A DNA stretch of 12,094 bases from a virus (Duplodnaviria > Heunggongvirae > Uroviricota > Caudoviricetes), in the IMG/VR virus record IMGVR_UViG_2802429253_000011, one strand, 5' to 3'. Positions 177 to 10,689 of this stretch are shown one piece after another. Below the pieces are notes generated by a model. It worked only from the letters and a program-made list of their open reading frames with translations. It was not told the DNA's origin and made no database searches. Each line of letters begins with the position of its first letter. Position 1 is the stretch's first letter. The position numbers were made by a program, and so were the translations under genes.

Positions 177-683
177 TTATCGCCCACGCACTACCAGTGC
201 CTGATCCAACTCCCGATATGCCTCAACCAGTTTCTCCAGAGAAACTCGACTTAAACCGCTGGGATTCGGCAATACCCAAATCTGCGTCGAACCAATGGTC
301 AGCGTTTGTTTCCCCCACTGCACGCCTCGCTGACTGAATCCCTGTTCATACGCCTGCTTACCCAGAATCGCCAACGCCTGCGGCTGATAATTCTCAATTT
401 TTTCAATTAGCTTGCGCCCACCTGCGTGCAATTCCTGCTTTGACACTTCATTAGCCTGCACCGTTGGCCTGTCAACCAGTTTGGTGACGCCACAACGATA
501 ATCCAGCAGATGCTGCGCTTCCTGCGGCTTCAACTGACGGTCGGTAAACCCGGCCTGATAAATCACCTTCCAGAAGCGATTCGCCGGATGGGCAAACGGA
601 AAACCAGACTCCGCGGAAGAAAGACCCGGATTGATGCCACAAAACACCACACGCAATCCTGGCGCAAGAATATCGTCAACCAT
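177..683 (-). CDS. mug: G/U mismatch-specific DNA glycosylase Mug (uracil-DNA glycosylase family 2), 168 aa
   Basis: Translation from the internal Met ([23 protein letters not shown]...[14 protein letters not shown]...LVVRGR) matches E. coli Mug almost residue for residue as recalled. ATG at 681-683 is preceded by AGGAG; stop TAA at 177-179. The track ORF 177..782 adds a 33-aa upstream extension that runs into the tRNA promoter region and is not supported. Confidence 0.9.
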
Positions 684-769
684 ATTAACTCCTGAACAAC
701 ACAACCCGCAGGAAGTATAACGAATTGAAAACACATTGTTTATAAAAACAGCAGCCGCGCGGTAATGGC

Positions 770-798
770 TGGATTGCGACACGGAGTTACTTTATAAT
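770..798 (+). promoter_or_regulatory. Probable sigma70 promoter of the tRNA gene
   Basis: TATAAT at 793-798 followed by a GC-rich discriminator (CCGC) about 10 bp before the mature tRNA 5' end at 809; -35 region is weak. Confidence 0.35.
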
Positions 799-808
799 CC
801 GCTACCAT

Positions 809-884
809 GGCCCCTTAGCTCAGTGGTTAGAGCAGGCGACTCATAATCGCTTGGTCGTTGGTTCAAACCCAACAGGGGCCACCA
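809..884 (+). tRNA. ileX: tRNA-Ile2 (anticodon CAU, lysidine-type; ileX/ileY class), 76 nt including encoded CCA
   Basis: Cloverleaf readable by eye: acceptor GGCCCCT/AGGGGCC, D-arm GCTC-AGTGGTTAG-GAGC, anticodon loop CTCATAA (CAT at 842-844), T-arm GTTGG-TTCAAAC-CCAAC, 3' ACCA. Overall sequence resembles E. coli ileX rather than Met/fMet tRNAs. The position next to mug matches the K-12 ileX locus as recalled. Confidence 0.85.
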
Positions 885-2505: not shown

Positions 2506-3177
2506 TCAGCGACCAATCACCACAATCTGGCCGCCATCCCCTTCGTCTGCCGTGCTGATCTCCTGAGAGACCACCCGCGACCCCACGCGCATTTCACCGT
2601 ACAGAACGGGCAGAACATTGCCCTGGGCAACCATGTTATCCAGTGAGGAGAAATAGGTGTTCTGTTTGCCGTTATCTGTACTTGCTGCCGTGGGCGTCCT
2701 GGCTTTCGGTGCCAGCATCTGCGCCACACCACCAAGTACCATACTGGCACCGAGAGAAAACAGGATACCGGTCATACCACCGGCCCCAATGGCTGCCCCC
2801 CATGCTGTAAGGGTGGCTCCGGCGGTAAAGAATGATCCGGCAATGGCGGCTGCTCCCAGGACAATCTGGAATACACCACCTGACTTGGCCCCGGCGACTC
2901 TGGGAACAATATGAATCACAGCGCCATCAGGCAGAGTCTCATGTAACTGCGCCGTTAATCCGGACGTGCTGACATCCTGCCCGGCAATCCGTACCTGATA
3001 CCAGCCGTCGCTCAGTTTCTGACGAAACGCCGGGAGCTGTGTGGCCAGCGCCCGGATGGCTTCGGCCCCCGTTTTCACACGCAGATCGATGCGGCGGCCA
3101 AATCGTTGTAAATCCCCGTAAAGGCAGATGCGTGCCATGCCTGGTGACGCCAGAGGGAGTGTGTGCGTCGCTGCCAT
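2506..3177 (-). CDS. Lambda tail-tip assembly protein I (gpI) homolog, 223 aa
   Basis: Translation MAATHTLPLASPGMARICLYGDLQRFGRRIDLRVKTGAEAIRALATQLPAFRQ... with a Gly/Ala-rich hydrophobic C-terminal half matches lambda gpI as recalled, nearly identical over the full length. ATG at 3175-3177, TGA at 2506-2508. Confidence 0.7.
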   Translation of the reverse strand: MAATHTLPLASPGMARICLYGDLQRFGRRIDLRVKTGAEAIRALATQLPAFRQKLSDGWYQVRIAGQDVSTSGLTAQLHETLPDGAVIHIVPRVAGAKSGGVFQIVLGAAAIAGSFFTAGATLTAWGAAIGAGGMTGILFSLGASMVLGGVAQMLAPKARTPTAASTDNGKQNTYFSSLDNMVAQGNVLPVLYGEMRVGSRVVSQEISTADEGDGGQIVVIGR

Positions 3178-3266: not shown

Positions 3267-5180
3267 TCATGCTCCATTCGATTTCAGCAATCCACGATAA
3301 TCGAGGGCCGCGACACCTGCATCTATGCGCACCTTCCAGGCGACACCATCAACAGTAAAGCCCACCTGCTCCTCAAGATATGGCGTATCCATACCATCAA
3401 GATAAGCGACTTCTATTGTGTCCATCCCCTTAGCTGCGGCTACATACCATTCCTTGCTATTGGCCTTATCAAGACGTGGCTCAACAATTACTTCTGCCAT
3501 ATCTTTCACCACGTTAATGATGCCGGGGTTCTGATTGATAGTGCCCTCATCACCAACCGGAAAGACTGATGACGATGACAGAATGGCGCGACGCGCGGCA
3601 GATTCCAGCGCGGCAGGGACCAGAACAAAAGCAGGGGTAATATTCAGTGAGTCGCCGTTAGCATCCTCCTGGAGGCGCATCAGCTTACGGGCTTCATCAA
3701 GCCCCACCATGTCCATATCCTTCGCAATAAGATTTTTATGATCGGCATGGAATAACGCTTTACCATCCGTAAACTTGCCGTTGCTGGTTAACAGGAGATA
3801 AACCAGATTGCCAACTGTTCTGGCGGCTGCGCGTCCCATCGCCATGGGGATTGTAGTTAACTGGGTCAGGTCATCGTTGATAATGGCCTGACGGGTAACG
3901 GAAAAAATATTCCCGTACGTGGCCAGCGCAATAGGTACACCTTTATCGCTGGTGGTGATGTATTTATATTCCGCACCTTCCGGTACTTTATCCAGCTTTG
4001 AAAAACCATTCAGACCAACGCGCTTTGCTTCATGAAAGTTTGAAAGCGAACCGGTACGCGTCCATTTCTGGAACGTTTCGCCGCTGTCCTGCCAGCCTTT
4101 CAGTACAGATTTTTCAGCCCCACCAGCCAGAATATGAGAAAAATCACTGCTGCTGTGTGTAAAAGCCGCATTAACAACCTGCGAGCGATTAATAAAACCA
4201 CTCACAGTGATACCACGATCAACCAGTGATGCCTGGGCCATTTCAAAAAGGCTCATCATCGCGTAAGGGTTGCCTCGTTCAGGGCGTTCATACCCAAGAC
4301 GGGAATAAAGCCCCTGACGAATTGCATCACCTGTTATGTTTCCGTTTCCGGCATAGATATGAGGCGGGGTATTTTTATTGGATGGCGTGGACTCGCGCCC
4401 CAGCTCGTTCAACAGCTTTTCACGGGCCATTTCCGGTGTACATGATGCATCTTCCAGACACGCCATTTTGATCCCGTCGTAACGACTGCCGAACAGGCTA
4501 AACACTTCACTTATTCCATTGATGCGTTTCTGTTCATTACCAGCAATATTTGCCGCTCCCTGTGGCGGTGTAATCATTCCTTTAATGGTTTCCGGCATAT
4601 GTAAAAAATCTCCTGTACGTTTCGATTCAATTCGCGCCATTGCTCTGACGGATGGCAACAATTCATCAGCAAAACCGTGCTTAAGGCATTCTTTCCCATC
4701 CATCCAGGTTTCATCCTCCAGCATGGCGGTAATTTCCTGTGCTGATTTGCCCGTTTTTCTGGCATAAGCAGGGATTAACACGGTTTCCACCTTATCCAGC
4801 AAATCAGCATAATCACGCATATCGCCAGCATTTCCGCCAGAGATCCCCCACGGTTTATGGATCATCATCATGGCGTTCTCCGGCATCACTACACGATCGC
4901 CAGCCATTGCGACCACCGAAGCCATTGAAGCCGCAACACCATCGATATAAACCGTAATGTCTGCCGGATGATTCCGTAGCAGGTTATAGATGGCGATGCC
5001 TTCAAACACATCACCACCTGGTGAATGGATCCTCAGATTGATATGTGAAACATCGCCAAGGGCTTTCAGGTCTTCCGCGAACTGCTTTGCAGTAACACCG
5101 AAGCCGCCAATCTCCTCATAGATAGATATATCCGCCGCTCCGCGAACATCCGCCGCCTTAATGGTGTACCAGCGATTCAT
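3267..5180 (-). CDS. Fusion of prohead protease (ClpP/S14-like) and HK97-fold major capsid protein, 637 aa
   Basis: N-terminus carries ClpP-like motifs (INLRIHSPGGDVFEGIAIYNLL, DGVAASMASVVAMAGD, MMMIHKPWG); the C-terminal ~400 aa has the composition and length of an HK97-family capsid protein. Start ATG 5178-5180 overlaps the upstream stop (TAATG). Confidence 0.8.
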   Translation of the reverse strand: MNRWYTIKAADVRGAADISIYEEIGGFGVTAKQFAEDLKALGDVSHINLRIHSPGGDVFEGIAIYNLLRNHPADITVYIDGVAASMASVVAMAGDRVVMPENAMMMIHKPWGISGGNAGDMRDYADLLDKVETVLIPAYARKTGKSAQEITAMLEDETWMDGKECLKHGFADELLPSVRAMARIESKRTGDFLHMPETIKGMITPPQGAANIAGNEQKRINGISEVFSLFGSRYDGIKMACLEDASCTPEMAREKLLNELGRESTPSNKNTPPHIYAGNGNITGDAIRQGLYSRLGYERPERGNPYAMMSLFEMAQASLVDRGITVSGFINRSQVVNAAFTHSSSDFSHILAGGAEKSVLKGWQDSGETFQKWTRTGSLSNFHEAKRVGLNGFSKLDKVPEGAEYKYITTSDKGVPIALATYGNIFSVTRQAIINDDLTQLTTIPMAMGRAAARTVGNLVYLLLTSNGKFTDGKALFHADHKNLIAKDMDMVGLDEARKLMRLQEDANGDSLNITPAFVLVPAALESAARRAILSSSSVFPVGDEGTINQNPGIINVVKDMAEVIVEPRLDKANSKEWYVAAAKGMDTIEVAYLDGMDTPYLEEQVGFTVDGVAWKVRIDAGVAALDYRGLLKSNGA

Positions 5181-5386
5181 TATTCCCCCACCGATGCAAA
5201 ACCATTCTGATTAAGCCAGGTGTTTACGGCATGTCTGACAATCTGCGCCACACCTGGTAATGGTTTGTCAGGATGATGATTTATATGGTCGATCCTGTAC
5301 TGCTTAAGGCGCATAACGGTCTGCGCATCCAGATGAACGGAACCACCCCTGATATCGCCCGTGTTCAGGTCATTAATACAACTCAC
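5180..5386 (-). CDS. Hypothetical 68-aa protein, first gene of the capsid operon
   Basis: GTG start at 5384-5386 preceded by a strong RBS (AAGAGGAAG); stop overlaps the capsid start. Function unknown. Confidence 0.5.
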   Translation of the reverse strand: MSCINDLNTGDIRGGSVHLDAQTVMRLKQYRIDHINHHPDKPLPGVAQIVRHAVNTWLNQNGFASVGE

Positions 5387-5487
5387 AGTAACTTCCTCTT
5401 ACTGACTAAACTGTGCACATTATTGATCGATAAAAGTGGTAGATAAACATATTTCTATCATAAAAACAGATTAATGAGATTCAGACA

Positions 5488-5511
5488 CAAAAAAGCCGGA
5501 GAAAATCCGGC
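5488..5511 (-). terminator. Intrinsic terminator or attenuator in the leader upstream of the 68-aa gene
   Basis: On the minus strand GCCGGA-UUUUC-UCCGGC followed by six U (plus-strand stem 5495-5511, A-run 5489-5494). Confidence 0.5.
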
Positions 5512-5698
5512 ATAAATATCCCGCCATCTGAACACGTTTTGACACAGGCAACTCCACCTGGCAGGTGAAAAACAGATTTATTTATATATTTCAATTAATT
5601 GCAAACTGGTCTAATGACAGGGAGAAAAAAATATTGTACAGGTGAAAACAGAAATAACTTTTAATTATCAATAAATTATCACACATGCTGCCGCCGCC

Positions 5699-5771
5699 AT
5701 GAAAATGCAAAAACCAGCCTTTTTCCGCGCCGCTCCCGCCCCGTGGCAGGTCACTACACCGGGAGGACCCA
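5699..5771. repeat. Copy B of the 73-bp direct repeat (partner at 2349-2421)
   Basis: Differs from copy A only at 5715, 5751, 5755 and 5756. Abuts the terminator at 5772-5795. Confidence 0.8.
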
Positions 5772-5795
5772 TAAAAAAGCCGGATTGCTCCGGCT
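5772..5795 (-). terminator. Intrinsic terminator ending the primase/origin transcription unit
   Basis: Stem AGCCGGA (5778-5784) / TCCGGCT (5789-5795), loop TTGC; on the minus strand it is followed by six U (complement of A5773-A5778). Confidence 0.6.
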
Positions 5796-5931
5796 TCTGT
5801 CACTCGTTGCTTAAAACGGTATGTTATCCCCGTACGGATCATCATTCCCCGCCTGTTGTTTTGGTGTGCTTCGCTGTCATAGGCTTTATCTCACAGCAGT
5901 AAATTAAAATTTTTGCGTTTTAACCCTTCAC

Positions 5932-6154
5932 CTGTTCACCTTTTGATATTTTCTCTTTTAATTCATAATGTTAAGGGGTGAACAGTTTCACAAAAACTAT
6001 TCACCAACTGTTCACCACTGTTCACCCTTGAAGCTCAATAAACAATCAAAAAGGTGAACAGTGAATAGTTTGGTGAACAGTTCATAAATAACTGTTCACC
6101 CTATAATATACTGATATAAAAGATATTTATGACAGGGTGAACAGTGGTGAACAG
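5932..6154. repeat. Iteron array, candidate replication origin (P4 ori/crr-like)
   Basis: Eleven copies of CTGTTCACC or its complement GGTGAACAG (two of them variants, CTATTCACC and GTGAATAG) at 5932, 5977, 5997, 6008, 6018, 6053, 6061, 6072, 6092, 6136 and 6146, in both orientations, interleaved with AT-rich tracts (5941-5974, 6101-6134). Ends 20 bp from the primase stop. TGTTCACC is the type I iteron bound by P4 alpha protein. Confidence 0.75.
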
Positions 6155-6173
6155 TTATTCCATAAGTTTAATT

Positions 6174-7985
6174 TTAGCTATCGTCATTAGTGACCGATAC
6201 ACATGATGGCATCCAGTCTTCTGATTCCTCCGTCAGTGTCACGTTTGAACGCAAACCGTGCTTCGTTTTCCGTTTCATATACTCCCTGCCATATTCCGCC
6301 ATTGCCCCCGGCATATCTTTACCGAAGCGCGTCAGTGTTACAGGTTTACCAAACCCATGTGCCCTCATATAAGCCAGATAGGCATGATAGAGATACCTGC
6401 GTGGGCTGAATGGCACAATTTCAGCATTACCCACTAACAGGCCATCACACATTACCGACGCCATGAGATAGCCGCAGAAGTCCACCAGCGAATCCCCCTC
6501 TCGCTTTATCGCCAGTGCTTCTTCAGATTTCTGCTGCTCATATAACAGGCGTCTGGCTTCGTCCTGGTCAGCAAACCGTGTAAGCAGATGGCGAATCACT
6601 ACCGCCAGCTCACCTTCTATTTTTTCCGCCAGCATTGGATCGCGTTCGTTCTCCGGTACAACTTCCGAAAAATTGAATATCACCCGACGACGTGAGATCC
6701 CCCCGCTGCGGTCACTGAATGACATGGCGTTATTGTTAACCGCCAGCACTACTGCCGGAATACGCGTTGAGTAGGGGGCTTTGTGTTTCGGGTCAATTGC
6801 CACCTTGTCACCGCCTGTAATAGCCTTAATCCCTGCCCCATCACCAGCGTAGCGGGTCATATCCGGCATGATAATCAGCGAAAAGCCAACCACTAACGCG
6901 CGTTCCCTTGCATCTTCCAGCGCCTTCATGCTTGCCGATACTGTGTTGGCCTTACCCGCCAGCATGGTGCAAATCTCCGCCATCACGCTTTTACCACTTC
7001 CCCCTGGACCTGTTACCTCAATGAATAACTGCCAGTCGTACCGGTTCGCCAGCACCATGAATAATGCAGCCAGTACGCGATCCGCCTTGCGGTCATTCTC
7101 AGCCACCGAACGGCGTAACCACTTCCAGAAATTCGGCGCATGTGTTGCCAGCGTTTCCCCCTCTGCTGGTGGGCTGAAAGGTAATTCACTGGCAATTAAC
7201 AACCAGTCGTTTTTGTTATGCTCCCGAAAATTACCTGTTCTGGTATCAAATACCCCGTTACTGAATCCAATCAGGTTACGGGCTGTATTCCCCATAACAG
7301 GCAAACTTAACTTCATGGTATCGACCGCCGATTTAATGGCGTTCTGCGAATAGCTGATCTCCGCATCAATGAAAATCTGTGCCATAGCTCGCTGTAATTC
7401 TTTATCCTGTACTGGCTCCCATACAACGCCGTTGTAATGGTGAACAGTATCAGAGTCGGCATGAATCGCCAGTTCACCGCCATAATGTGCCAGGAGAACT
7501 TCGCCGCGTTGACTTGCTCCCATCTGGTTAAGCGCCAGTGATGAAGCGTTATCGTCTTTTACCCGCTCTTTTTTCTTTACAGGCAGTTCAACTACCTTTT
7601 TCTTTTCCGCCTGCTCTGCCCGTTCACGTTCCAGATATTCGCGCCAGTTCTCCCGTTTCTGGCTGTGCATTCCTTCAGGATAATAATCAGCATCCCTGAC
7701 ACCGGCCGCTGCCAGTTTCTGCCCGATGGTATTAACAAGCCCCGGACGCAATAACCCCGCCTGATAGAGACGCACACGATAGCGTCCGTCCGGTACGATT
7801 TGCAGGTTGTCCAGTTCGGCAAGTTGTTGCTCTCCAAGCCAGACAGGAGGCACGTTATCGCCAGCCAGTCGCCCGTCCTGTTCCTGCCACTGCTTCGCAT
7901 GTGCCCACGCATCACTACCCGCAAAAATGATGACTTCCGTCATTTTGTCACGTGGCTGGTGTTTTAAATTTGGCGCTTTTTTCAT
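6174..7985 (-). CDS. P4 alpha-type primase/helicase (N-terminal primase region, SF3 helicase with Walker A GPGGSGKS)
   Basis: Long ORF with VTGPGGSGKS, followed by residues typical of the phage/plasmid primase P4-family C-terminal domain. Start assigned to ATG 7983-7985, which overlaps the upstream stop (ATGA); track start is a GTG at 8000. Iterons lie directly downstream. Confidence 0.8.
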   Translation of the reverse strand: MKKAPNLKHQPRDKMTEVIIFAGSDAWAHAKQWQEQDGRLAGDNVPPVWLGEQQLAELDNLQIVPDGRYRVRLYQAGLLRPGLVNTIGQKLAAAGVRDADYYPEGMHSQKRENWREYLERERAEQAEKKKVVELPVKKKERVKDDNASSLALNQMGASQRGEVLLAHYGGELAIHADSDTVHHYNGVVWEPVQDKELQRAMAQIFIDAEISYSQNAIKSAVDTMKLSLPVMGNTARNLIGFSNGVFDTRTGNFREHNKNDWLLIASELPFSPPAEGETLATHAPNFWKWLRRSVAENDRKADRVLAALFMVLANRYDWQLFIEVTGPGGSGKSVMAEICTMLAGKANTVSASMKALEDARERALVVGFSLIIMPDMTRYAGDGAGIKAITGGDKVAIDPKHKAPYSTRIPAVVLAVNNNAMSFSDRSGGISRRRVIFNFSEVVPENERDPMLAEKIEGELAVVIRHLLTRFADQDEARRLLYEQQKSEEALAIKREGDSLVDFCGYLMASVMCDGLLVGNAEIVPFSPRRYLYHAYLAYMRAHGFGKPVTLTRFGKDMPGAMAEYGREYMKRKTKHGLRSNVTLTEESEDWMPSCVSVTNDDS

Positions 7986-8281
7986 TTCTGCTCTCTCCAC
8001 GCGGCAATCATGTTTTTCAGTTCCTGTAGTTTTTTATCCACATTCACACGTGACACATGGTTATTTCTGGAAAGCGGGATTTCCCGCCTGAATCTGCTAA
8101 TAAAGATCTCCACGTTCAGCGAACTATGAAATGAATAGCCATCACGAATAAAATACACACGGTCAAACATTATCGATTTTACTGTTACTCTGTTGCCGTT
8201 CTTATCCCGATAAATAGCGCCGGGGATAATTTTGGGATGTGCATAACCGCTGGCAGTCAAGCCAGATAAATACGTTCTCAT
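7982..8281 (-). CDS. Hypothetical 99-aa protein, coupled to the primase
   Basis: ATG 8279-8281; stop overlaps the primase start. No family recognised. Confidence 0.5.
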   Translation of the reverse strand: MRTYLSGLTASGYAHPKIIPGAIYRDKNGNRVTVKSIMFDRVYFIRDGYSFHSSLNVEIFISRFRREIPLSRNNHVSRVNVDKKLQELKNMIAAWREQK

Positions 8282-8287
8282 GATTAT

Positions 8288-8608
8288 TTATCCCCGATTT
8301 GAATCAGTATTCGCTTTCTTTATGGCATTTAATGCATCTGTGGCATTTTCAATGGTGCACCGTAACGAAATATCAAAATGTCCAAGCATTGCCAGTAACA
8401 AACCGATATTACCCATATCAATGCGCATGGCCTTTTCGTCATAGTCCTCATTTTCTGACGCATGCCACATCAGGCTACCAATTGACGCAACGGCCATTGA
8501 TATATTGTCAGTCGCCACATCCGCAGCGGAATAAACCTTTTTAGCAATATCATGCTCACAGTTAAAATGCGGATTAATCAGGTACTGGTAATTTGACATA
8601 TCAGGCAT
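8288..8608 (-). CDS. Hypothetical 106-aa protein
   Basis: ATG 8606-8608 overlaps the upstream stop (ATGCCTGA); RBS GGGGG. Acidic protein, no family recognised. Confidence 0.5.
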   Translation of the reverse strand: MPDMSNYQYLINPHFNCEHDIAKKVYSAADVATDNISMAVASIGSLMWHASENEDYDEKAMRIDMGNIGLLLAMLGHFDISLRCTIENATDALNAIKKANTDSNRG

Positions 8609-8804
8609 GGCACACCCCCTGACGAATACGGGCGGCGAATACCATCACGCAGCCAGCCGGGGATTGCTGGCGTGCTTCCTGTTCGCTGGTGGCCACGATG
8701 GTAATCACACGCGGTTTTGCGGCGCTCAGGGCGATAAAACGCCAGGCGAATTTATTCAGGTTGTGCGAATCCCGCCCTTGCGGGTGTATGGTATGATTTC
8801 TCAT
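8601..8804 (-). CDS. Small Icd-like protein (P4-family host cell division inhibitor-like), 67 aa
   Basis: MRNHTIHPQGRDSHNLNKFAWRFIALSAAKPRVITIVATSEQEARQQSPAGCVMVFAARIRQGVCHA; ATG 8802-8804 with GAGG 6 nt upstream. The track merges it into a 334-aa ORF whose upstream part is antisense to real plus-strand genes. Family call is from memory of Icd-like annotations. Confidence 0.5.
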   Translation of the reverse strand: MRNHTIHPQGRDSHNLNKFAWRFIALSAAKPRVITIVATSEQEARQQSPAGCVMVFAARIRQGVCHA

Positions 8805-8842
8805 AGCTACCTCGATACTCTCGTTATCGTTGGTGGTTAGAA

Positions 8843-8887
8843 GCCCTGCGAGTGGTAACGACACTTGCGGGGCTTTGTTTTTTGTTG
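8843..8887 (+). terminator. Plus-strand intrinsic terminator or attenuator in the divergent control region
   Basis: 12-bp stem (8843-8854 / 8862-8873) with two G-U wobble pairs that only pair in plus-strand RNA, 7-nt loop, then UUUGUUUUUUGUUG. Confidence 0.5.
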
Positions 8888-8899
8888 CACTTACTGTTA

Positions 8900-8950
8900 A
8901 TGTACGTACGTAATATTGATGATAATAGGAGTTACGTACGTACATGTCAA
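8900..8950 (-). promoter_or_regulatory. Leftward promoter (TTGACA-17-TATTAT) overlapped by a pair of 14-bp perfect inverted repeats (operator)
   Basis: On the minus strand, -35 TTGACA is at 8950-8945 and -10 TATTAT at 8927-8922 with a 17-bp spacer. ATGTACGTACGTAA (8900-8913) and TTACGTACGTACAT (8932-8945) are exact reverse complements and flank the RBS and start codon of the RHH gene. Confidence 0.6.
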
Positions 8951-9135
8951 CATTAAAGCGGGATAAATCACCACGCGGCGAGGGATGGTCGCCGACATTC
9001 CAGATACGAATTAGCAAAGAACTACGCCAGCAAGTAAACGAGGCAGCAACCGCCGATGGCCTAACCCTCGGCAATTGGTTTAAAGAATTAGCTCGTGCCG
9101 AACTAAAGCGACGCGGCATTGAACCTAAAGGCTGA
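8944..9135 (+). CDS. Ribbon-helix-helix (Arc/CopG-like) DNA-binding protein, 63 aa
   Basis: FQIRISKELRQQVNEAATADGLTLGNWFKELARAEL has the strand-helix-helix pattern of RHH regulators. AGGAG at 8927-8931; start codon sits inside the right operator arm. Confidence 0.55.
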   Translation: MSTLKRDKSPRGEGWSPTFQIRISKELRQQVNEAATADGLTLGNWFKELARAELKRRGIEPKG

Positions 9136-9138
9136 TGT

Positions 9139-9264
9139 ATGACTGAAAAGCAGACCGATAACAAACTTTCTCTACCAGAGAATAAACCAGCAGGCTTCTT
9201 ACCAAGAAAAATCCTTGATGAGATCAAACGCCGCCAGCGGCGCAAGGCCAAAGAGCAGGAGTAA
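9139..9264 (+). CDS. Possible 41-aa basic peptide, or 5' part of an interrupted gene
   Basis: ATG 4 nt after the RHH stop; ends at TAA 9262-9264; same frame as the next ORF. Confidence 0.2.
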   Translation: MTEKQTDNKLSLPENKPAGFLPRKILDEIKRRQRRKAKEQE

Positions 9265-9321
9265 CCATCACCAGCGCCGTGGTGCGGTGAACTGTGGCGC
9301 ACAGGGTTACAGGTATCTACG

Positions 9322-9501
9322 ATGACTGACAAATCATTAAAGAAATTATCCTCATCCAAGAAAAAACAACGCAAAAATGCGGTAAACGAACATGAACCGG
9401 AGAGATTCGCACCATGTGCGTTTATCCTTGAGAAGTACCTTAAAGAGTATTCTAGGAAAATACGCTCATTGCAGGCATGGCAGCGAATCGAGCCAGACTG
9501 A
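9322..9501 (+). CDS. Possible 59-aa Lys-rich protein, or 3' part of an interrupted gene
   Basis: ATG 9322-9324 to TGA 9499-9501; in frame with 9139-9264 and no other stops between them; followed by a terminator. Confidence 0.2.
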   Translation: MTDKSLKKLSSSKKKQRKNAVNEHEPERFAPCAFILEKYLKEYSRKIRSLQAWQRIEPD

Positions 9502-9566
9502 TAGCATTGCCCACCAGCCAACAACCTGGTATTCTGGATATGCTCAAGTTTAGTGTTATGCCACTG

Positions 9567-9594
9567 GCGGCCCTCTGCGGTCGCCTTTGTTTTA
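9567..9594 (+). terminator. Intrinsic terminator of the rightward small operon
   Basis: Stem GGCGGCC (9567-9573) / GGTCGCC (9579-9585) with one G-U pair, 5-nt loop, then UUUGUUUUAUG. Confidence 0.5.
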
Positions 9595-9611
9595 TGTGCC
9601 ATCACTCCCCC

Positions 9612-9821
9612 TTACACCGTCTGCGTTCTGCGAGTGGATGCAAGATAAGCATCGAGATCAGTGCGCATATACAGCACTTTGCGCCCCAGCTTATGGAAAG
9701 GGATTTTTACCTTGCCAGTACAGGCCCAGTTCGCCAGCGTTTGATTGTTAACGCCAAGGTAGGCAGCAGCTTCAGCACGTGTAAGGCGGTCAGTTGATAA
9801 ATCAGATTTCTTTAAATTCAT
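9612..9821 (-). CDS. AlpA/Xis-family helix-turn-helix DNA-binding protein, about 69 aa
   Basis: LTRAEAAAYLGVNNQTLANWACTGKVKIPFHKLGRKVLYMRTDLDAYL fits the small AlpA/excisionase-type HTH family. ATG 9819-9821 chosen; an alternative GTG at 9830 gives 72 aa. Confidence 0.7.
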   Translation of the reverse strand: MNLKKSDLSTDRLTRAEAAAYLGVNNQTLANWACTGKVKIPFHKLGRKVLYMRTDLDAYLASTRRTQTV

Positions 9822-9882
9822 ATCTATCACCGTGTACTTCTAAGTAACAACGGTGATAAATATCAATCAATGGGTATTTTGT

Positions 9883-9968: not shown

Positions 9969-10689
9969 GGGGGTGAACAAGTTCAAACGAAGAATATTTA
10001 TCAGGTCTTGGTGGTTGTGCTCCTGATTCTTTAATCCATTTATCCAGAGTGTTTTTACTTACTTTCCCATGATAGTAAACAGAAAGCTCGTTCAATAAAC
10101 CTGTTTTACTGGCTTTAGGGTACTTTTCCCATGTTAGTTTAATTACGTGCATAACTTCATTGTAATAATGATTTCTTGGTTTGCGCGCTTTTTCTTTCTG
10201 TGATAAGGATAAAGCATCTTTTATTTTTTTATCTTTTTCATGGTTCGATATAATTTCTTCAAAAAAGTCATTAAGCAATAACTCAACACCAACCCTAGTA
10301 AGTTTGTCTGCGTGATTACGCATTCCGACATGGTACAATGCAACTGCTGAATTTAAAGTATCGACAACCTGACAAGATAGTTTACTATCAAATATTAAAA
10401 AACCACATGAATCCATTCTTATAGCTAATTCAATAGGATATTGCTCGATTTCTCTTAATTCTAAACCATAACACAAAAGAAATTCTCTTGTTGGATACTT
10501 TGATTTATAAAAATAATCTCTTATATCATCAATCAAGCGTTTTATAGCCTCTATGGTGGAGTTTTTCGGGGATAAAGATACAGGAACGTTTAAAACTGAA
10601 GAGTCTCGCCCACCAGTAATTAAATCATTCATAACCGAATAAATAATATATTGTTTGACCGATATATTGTTATCACCCATATATGTCAT
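9964..10689 (-). CDS. Hypothetical protein (238-241 aa), AT-rich, translationally coupled to the integrase
   Basis: ORF noticeably more AT-rich than its neighbours by eye. Candidate ATG at 10678-10680 overlaps the integrase stop (ATGGGTGA); track start is at 10689. No motif recognised (no Walker A, no transmembrane segment). Confidence 0.55.
   Translation of the reverse strand: MTYMGDNNISVKQYIIYSVMNDLITGGRDSSVLNVPVSLSPKNSTIEAIKRLIDDIRDYFYKSKYPTREFLLCYGLELREIEQYPIELAIRMDSCGFLIFDSKLSCQVVDTLNSAVALYHVGMRNHADKLTRVGVELLLNDFFEEIISNHEKDKKIKDALSLSQKEKARKPRNHYYNEVMHVIKLTWEKYPKASKTGLLNELSVYYHGKVSKNTLDKWIKESGAQPPRPDKYSSFELVHPQ

Follow-up and report, generated by a model that had tools for sequence, protein, structure and literature searches.

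A probable replication origin with phage P4 octamers in a phage-inducible chromosomal island of Escherichia coli

What is the role of a dense cluster of short repeats lying immediately behind a helicase gene, and is this where the element that carries it begins to replicate? The stretch of DNA analysed here in full, hereafter the window (12,094 bp), contains 11 exact copies of the octamer TGTTCACC where dinucleotide-preserving shuffles predict 0.36, and none of 200 such shuffles reached this number (the maximum was three). Nine of the copies lie within 5933-6153, in both orientations. One further site in the same region has a single mismatch (TATTCACC), and two degenerate sites, each abutting an exact one, are occupied by full iterons in relatives; the nine exact and three degenerate copies thus make a 12-site array (Table 1). 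The preliminary description of this locus had counted eleven copies in 5932-6154, which is about right for that interval, with one more site 7 bp to its left. It had also placed them, in both orientations, directly downstream of the helicase gene, and the array does lie 20 bp past the stop codon of the minus-strand rep ORF. The match then proposed to the octamer recognised by the alpha protein of phage P4 is borne out by the P4 GenBank record (NC_001609), which labels TGTTCACC 'ori type 1 repeat' and marks it in ori as well as in crr. We argue below that the array is very probably the site at which vegetative replication begins in a phage-inducible chromosomal island (PICI) of E. coli, ~11 kb in length, a reading built on its geometry, on the adjacent initiator and on comparison with relatives.

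Table 1. Positions of the features discussed in the text (window coordinates unless stated otherwise).
Feature	Position	Strand	Remarks
mug	177-782		chromosomal junction marker
tRNA, anticodon CAT	809-884		chromosomal junction marker
DUF1441 terminase-like gene			encoded by the island
ClpP-protease/major-capsid fusion	3267-5180	-	single 637-aa ORF: ClpP-like prohead protease + major capsid protein
Helper-phage-type cos region	5538-5745	-	phage identity; not part of the origin
Array, 12 sites	5925-6153		229 bp; predicted origin
Exact TGTTCACC sites in the array	5933+, 5977-, 6009+, 6019+, 6053-, 6072-, 6093+, 6136-, 6146-	both	
Exact TGTTCACC outside the array	7439, 9972		single copies
Degenerate site CCTTCACC	5925		abuts 5933 site; read from sequence
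Degenerate site TATTCACC	5998		one mismatch
Degenerate site AGTGAATA	6060		abuts 6053 site; read from sequence
Rep-distal half-origin	5925-6026	+	sites 5925 (degenerate), 5933, 5977 (inverted), 5998 (one mismatch), 6009, 6019; relative starts 0, 8, 52, 73, 84, 94
Spacer A	5941-5976		36 bp, 80.6% A+T; bracketing iterons face each other
Central linker	6027-6052		26 bp, 73% A+T; holds dyad centre
Rep-proximal half-origin	6053-6153	-	sites 6053, 6060 (degenerate), 6072, 6093 (inverted), 6136, 6146; relative starts, read from the rep side, 0, 10, 53, 74, ~86, 93
Spacer B	6101-6135		35 bp, 80.0% A+T; predicted first melting site
P4 ori1	9310-9413 (P4)		relative starts 0, 10, 53, 75, 86, 96
rep (initiator gene)	6174-8000	-	603/608 aa
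Rep domains			N-terminal alpha/beta, ~115 aa; D5_N + SF3 helicase, ~aa 150-500; winged-helix origin-binding, aa 502-598
ORF with Icd-like C-terminus	8601-9605	-	334 aa; last ~50 residues are an Icd-like cell-division inhibitor domain
HTH_17 regulator	9612-9830		
Tyrosine integrase			start coincides with the window end

The island and its initiator

The window holds the PICI nearly entire, inserted at the tRNA(CAT) gene beside mug, with ~280 bp of the element lying outside. After the capsid fusion come, in this order, the cos-like block, the array, rep, DUF4222, the protein with the Icd-like C-terminus, the HTH_17 regulator and the integrase, and the gene order of the window is that of the island EcCICFT073. 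A complete island in E. coli DCE7 (L003) is 98-99% identical to the window and presents the same gene picture, and the rep-ori region is found at a coverage of at least 80% in 431 of 5,426 complete E. coli genomes. The capsid gene and a match to vB_KppS-Ant first suggested the label cf-PICI; we dropped it because the window has no portal, large terminase or connector genes and because the gene order matches EcCICFT073. At the place of the ClpP-protease/capsid fusion, EcCICFT073 has a plain major capsid protein and a decoration protein. The segment 2434-3256 (ORF 2506-3177, minus strand) is missing from L003; its product resembles the lambda tail-assembly protein I, which is unexpected in an island otherwise equipped with head and packaging genes only. 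The first ~250 residues of the ORF with the Icd-like C-terminus have no match at all, and its L003 counterpart is annotated as a truncated pseudogene.

Compared with L003, the window lacks 583 bp (L003:9472-10054; junction at 5859-5870), which comprise a small ORF and most of ssb. This gene lies between the origin and cos in L003, and the window retains its 3' end alone. In relatives ssb follows the origin, and its loss from the window suggests that the element may be partly decayed. Following the ssb remnant, a hairpin with a T-run lies on the minus strand at ~5775-5800.

The homologues of Rep begin MKxAPN, so that translation probably starts at the ATG at 7985 (603 aa). The protein has Pfam matches to D5_N, DUF5906 and Pox_D5, and its residues 150-608 align with P4 alpha 320-777, the part with the SF3 helicase and the origin-binding domain (51% identity over 452 aa, E=1e-163). 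Within this region, the crystal structure solved for the origin-binding domain of P4 (PDB 1KA8) is matched by residues 502-598 (E=1.8e-24), and Rep has in common with alpha both a helix segment, YLYHAYLAYM, and a wing motif, TKxG-[IL][RQ][ST]N. The 1KA8 structure reportedly comes from work by Yeo et al. in 2002. Rep shows no similarity to alpha 1-320, the zinc-finger/Toprim primase region, which is replaced by an unrelated domain of ~115 aa. Residues 1-149 gave no primase family match and no detectable primase motifs, and a fold search gave an equivocal result, with a weakly DnaG-core-like fold. The gene had been described as a primase/helicase: the helicase is there, together with an origin-binding domain, but a P4-type primase is not, because the counterpart of alpha 1-320 is missing. 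Rep having no recognisable primase, gene and array would form a self-contained replicon only with primers supplied by the host.

The N-terminal domain (window 7551-8000, residues 1-150) is also fused to RepA/AAA_25-type helicases in other E. coli elements. It behaves as a mobile module (proteins P0002, P0004, P0017, and P0018), found on helicases of either the alpha-type SF3 or the RepA/AAA_25 type, and in two records it is joined directly to an SSB domain in proteins of 233 aa. These last fusions probably arose via deletions like the 583-bp one of the window.

Layout of the array and its counterparts in P4

The array is a near-perfect mirror about 6039/6040, made of two inverted six-site half-origins: relative to 6039.5, the site centres fall at -111, -103, -59, -38, -27, and -17 on one side and at +17, +24, +36, +57, +100, and +110 on the other. 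Within a unit, two direct sites are followed by a spacer of 35-36 bp, one site facing back, 13 bp, and three direct sites spaced by about one helical turn. A repeat finder reports inverted arms of 54 nt across the array, which as single-stranded DNA would fold into one long hairpin (z=-8.1 relative to shuffles). A search for structured RNA returned only far-sub-threshold Rfam models of plant and animal miRNA hairpins, spanning 5924-6152, which we rejected as an artefact of the dyad symmetry.

No 30-mer in the window is less stable than the one that starts at 6101, within spacer B. It had been proposed that A+T-rich tracts flanking the iterons serve in unwinding. The flanks are indeed A+T-rich (71% in 5890-5924, 80% in 6154-6173), but the strongest tracts are internal, and the two spacers would therefore be better candidates for melting.

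Outside the array, an inverted pair lies within the rep coding region, with an exact octamer at 7439-7446 (minus strand) and a one-mismatch site at 7471-7478 (plus strand), 24 bp apart, in codons for ...HADSDTVHHY.... Many Xenorhabdus homologues also have an exact octamer ~570 bp before the stop codon, where the motif AVNNN is encoded. These in-gene octamers, like the single copy at 9972, are probably coding coincidences.

P4 replication is bipartite: ori and crr are kilobases apart and both are needed in cis. Ziegelin et al. are said to have described ori1 and crr together with the alpha protein in 1993. The six-site geometry of ori1 is reproduced twice in the window, in inverted orientation and with spacings within 1-3 bp, and the 35-bp A+T-rich spacer of P4 has its equivalents in the 35-36 bp spacers of the two halves. 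The arrangement of the units differs. In P4, a single half-unit (ori1) lies ~2.3 kb upstream of alpha and a pair of direct 120-bp repeats (crr) downstream of it, whereas the window has two half-units that are contiguous and inverted, and both the window and the L003 element have this one contiguous array in place of a split. Matches to the P4 type 2 repeat (CAYTTAAAG, at most one mismatch) number five in the window against 6.1 expected, none of them near the array.

The spacers add a further distinction. Spacer A resembles the spacers of both P4 crr repeats, with a 15-nt identical run, and its alignment with the crr2 spacer scores 16, compared with -0.8 +/- 3.3 for shuffles; spacer B has a weak similarity to the spacer of ori1 (p ~0.0035). 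The rep-distal half, which also has the position and orientation of P4 crr relative to the alpha-type gene, is thus the crr-related part of the locus. Since its spacer resembles crr rather than ori, the two halves may not be equivalent.

Relatives and alternative readings

We scanned one genome per species for relatives and obtained 80 loci, in which locus-specific iterons were defined de novo; with the window, P4 and EcCICFT073 this makes 83 sequences. The array starts within ~90 bp of the stop codon in all but about seven of them, namely one with too short a flank, two with misplaced ORF ends (L055 and L075) and four from Pantoea and Ewingella (L080-L083). In ~70 loci from many genera, alpha-type genes are followed by the same layout. 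The same orientation string, ++-+++--+--, is found in Klebsiella, Raoultella, Pectobacterium, Erwinia, Zobellella, Pseudocitrobacter, and CFT073, and a close variant of it in Xenorhabdus and Photorhabdus. In an alignment of 11 sequences from eight genera, 58% of the iteron columns are invariant, compared with 9% of the others (Fisher p=6e-16).

The layout is conserved, but the iteron itself varies, with TGTCTACC, TCTCCACC, TGTCCGCC, TGTATACC, TATACACC, and GTGTTCAT occurring in the same arrangement. A group of relatives with helicase domains 88-91% identical to that of the window has binding domains only 62-65% identical, with a 5-aa insertion in the wing hairpin, and uses TGTCTACC. Every user of TGTTCACC keeps the wing TKxG-[IL][RQ][ST]N, including P4, at 44% identity in the binding domain. 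Of the evidence from sequence alone, this co-variation speaks most strongly for a reading of the octamers by the C-terminal domain of Rep. The rule linking wing to iteron is not one-to-one, since EcCICFT073 has a very different binding domain and yet TGTCTACC-like sites.

The four Pantoea/Ewingella loci have no array adjoining the gene. Three of them have a single six-site unit ~2 kb upstream, like P4 ori1, and the arrangement of P4 is thus not unique to P4. In the P4-like elements of Pantoea, alpha is followed by a terminator and no iterons; the single unit lies at L082:3024-3130 and near 3001 in L080 and L083, and these remote units have a spacer like that of P4 ori1. The six-site unit, found alone at a distance from the gene in some elements and as an inverted pair next to it in others, thus looks like the basic module.

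Could the array be only a crr-like cis-acting enhancer of replication, with initiation taking place elsewhere, for example inside rep, as P4 is reported to have a second origin (ori2) inside alpha? Its place directly after an alpha-type gene is that of P4 crr, its distal spacer is significantly similar to crr spacers, and rep does contain the inverted pair at 7439/7471. Yet there is no second iteron cluster in the window or in the complete L003 element, and none within 6 kb in ~75 related loci, P4 being the only one to have it. Moreover, each half has the six-site geometry of ori1, unlike the crr unit. Finally, the rep-ori segment of EcCICFT073, i.e. rep and the adjacent array, was enough to maintain a plasmid in E. 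coli; rep was required, and significantly fewer colonies were obtained once ori had been deleted (Fillol-Salom et al. 2018, ISME J, PMC6092414). For these reasons we regard a role limited to that of crr as improbable.

Less probable still is that the sites are mainly regulatory, as operators of Rep or as copy-number ('handcuffing') sites. Plasmid iterons often have both roles, and in relatives the transcription of rep passes through the array into the small ORF and ssb. But the array lies downstream of rep and not at a promoter, a consensus scan found no sigma-70-like promoter in 5380-6300, and both the ori1 geometry and the conservation of A+T-rich spacers suggest a place of melting and loading. 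Regulation could be an additional role of the origin; taken as the sole one, it would leave the layout unexplained.

The cos-like block bears on two further proposals. Positions 5538-5741 are 93-94% identical to positions 1-204 of the lambdoid phages cdtI and Tritos, and HannyBb has a subterminal match of 92.3% identity to 5538-5770 (233 bp). The cdtI and Tritos records are independent and begin at the same nucleotide, and terS of cdtI starts at 185; the block is thus the left genome end of these phages, just upstream of terS. We infer a cohesive-end site near 5741, which on the reverse strand reads GGGCGGGAGCGG (compare lambda GGGCGG...), and two CAGGTGAAAA repeats lie 77 bp apart in the region. 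By its identity to these phage ends, 5538-5745 is a helper-type cos site and not an alpha-binding site, and it points to the likely helper phages of the island. The motifs at 5564-5575 and 5641-5651, which had been put forward as a second, crr-like site, fall within this block, with an IHF consensus between them (5666-5678 is the position of this consensus as scanned), and are conserved in cdtI, Tritos and HannyBb as GGTGAAAATCAG and GGTGAAAAGAG (also given as CAGGTGAAAATCAG and CAGGTGAAAAGAG). The stretches of these three records that we examined have no annotated gene of the P4 alpha type, and we rejected the second site, as the motifs belong to a phage block that is 92-94% identical. That the array itself is a packaging recognition site for the small terminase-like protein of the island is highly improbable: the cos-like region is only ~185 bp away and the DUF1441 protein is a product of the island, but the cos block is a separate phage-derived segment, and iteron sequence goes with the Rep binding domain even where packaging genes are quite different (P4-like elements and vB_KppS-Ant included).

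A working model and comparison with known origins

The reading that we favour, and hold with considerable confidence, is that the array is an origin to which Rep, encoded next to it, binds via a winged-helix domain. The proposal of an iteron origin for the neighbouring initiator, already made in the preliminary description, is well supported by the 1KA8 match, the ori1 geometry, the layout conserved across genera with its co-varying iterons, and the replication of the EcCICFT073 homologue. Upon induction, the adjacent gene would produce Rep, an SF3 helicase with a P4-alpha-type winged-helix C-terminus, and this domain would bind TGTTCACC. The twelve sites would act as two inverted six-site half-origins, each of which could recruit a hexamer of Rep with one binding domain per site, a correspondence that is numerology for now. 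The spacers would melt first, probably the rep-proximal one, and the mirror layout would load two helicases leaving in opposite directions. Priming would probably be carried out by the host DnaG, because Rep is devoid of the primase domain of P4. The rep-distal spacer of EcCICFT073 is G+C-rich (…gccgcgccattactggcatggtggcc…), unlike its rep-proximal spacer, which hints that only one spacer needs to melt.

A broader reading is tentative, and we consider it rather doubtful: the six-site unit would be a universal hexamer pad for alpha-type helicases, P4 ori and crr would be a split derivative of it, and P4-like satellites and this island would recognise each other's origins. If so, the usual form of the origin, and perhaps the ancestral one, would be two contiguous units placed head to head right after the gene, with P4 ori1 and its distant crr as a rearranged derivative brought together by looping. 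As the octamer, the geometry and the recognition residues are common to the island and to P4-like satellites, P4 alpha and Rep should recognise each other's origins, in which case two unrelated satellite families sharing an E. coli cell could activate each other's replication or compete for it.

As the comparisons show, the island has taken on the specificity module of P4 alpha and left out the primase. This connects two satellite families that are commonly regarded as separate, and cross-talk between them becomes a prediction open to testing. The analysis also provides exact coordinates for the predicted binding sites and for the likely melting spacer of this type of E. coli island. Furthermore, the same layout with at least six iteron sequences, each with a different wing, is a ready-made system to study how winged-helix initiators change specificity.

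How does this origin compare with known ones? Classical iteron-plasmid origins (of the RepA, pi or TrfA type) have tandem direct iterons of 17-22 bp and nearby DnaA boxes. The window departs from this type: its sites are of 8 bp and occur in both orientations, and there are no DnaA boxes within 1.8 kb of the array, the nearest being at 8034. SV40 large-T and papillomavirus E1 are SF3 initiators that act at palindromic sites by A+T-rich DNA and form head-to-head double hexamers (for background, PMC12137749). The window resembles these systems in having an SF3 helicase initiator with its own origin-binding domain and palindromic sites, but the origins have no sequence relationship and a double hexamer would be an extrapolation here. 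The likeness to P4 goes further, with octamers in both orientations, a six-site unit with its spacer and an alpha-type winged-helix domain. What separates the two is the split between ori and crr, the type 2 decamers beside ori1 and the zinc-finger/Toprim primase region of alpha, the helicase and origin-binding domains of which Rep shares.

The SaPI origins of Staphylococcus aureus, where a Rep helicase acts with iterons flanking an A+T-rich region 3' of rep, are likened by description to those of the Gram-negative islands, and the window shares with them the position relative to rep and the general logic (PMC6092414). The closest parallel is the origin of Gram-negative PICIs: the array of the window lies 3' of pri-rep, with two six-site sets around a centre of 73% A+T, and its Rep is homologous to Pri-Rep proteins. 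Rep is 49% identical to that of EcCICFT073 (WP_000761835) over 596 aligned positions, including the N-terminal domain. Both islands have the origin immediately 3' of pri-rep in an int/HTH/Icd-like/DUF4222/rep context, both have a helper-type cos, and the EcCICFT073 array (L086:7008-7235) has the same 2-1-3/3-1-2 mirror layout. They differ in their iterons (TGTCTACC/TATCTACC in EcCICFT073, TGTTCACC in the window), in the binding domain, which in the window is much closer to that of P4 alpha, in the attachment site (ycfD-phoQ in EcCICFT073, the tRNA beside mug in the window) and in the deletion of ssb in the window. PICI Pri-Rep proteins have been treated as only distantly related to alpha (PMC6092414), and a later survey considered satellite replicases as possibly analogous and not homologous. 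By its sequence, the variant in the window is unambiguously alpha-like and appears to use alpha's own octamer. Since the class and the position of the origin were already published, current understanding is not overturned: the class of PICI origins was known, and what is added here is a predicted PICI origin with the specificity of P4 alpha, which refines the published picture within an existing class.
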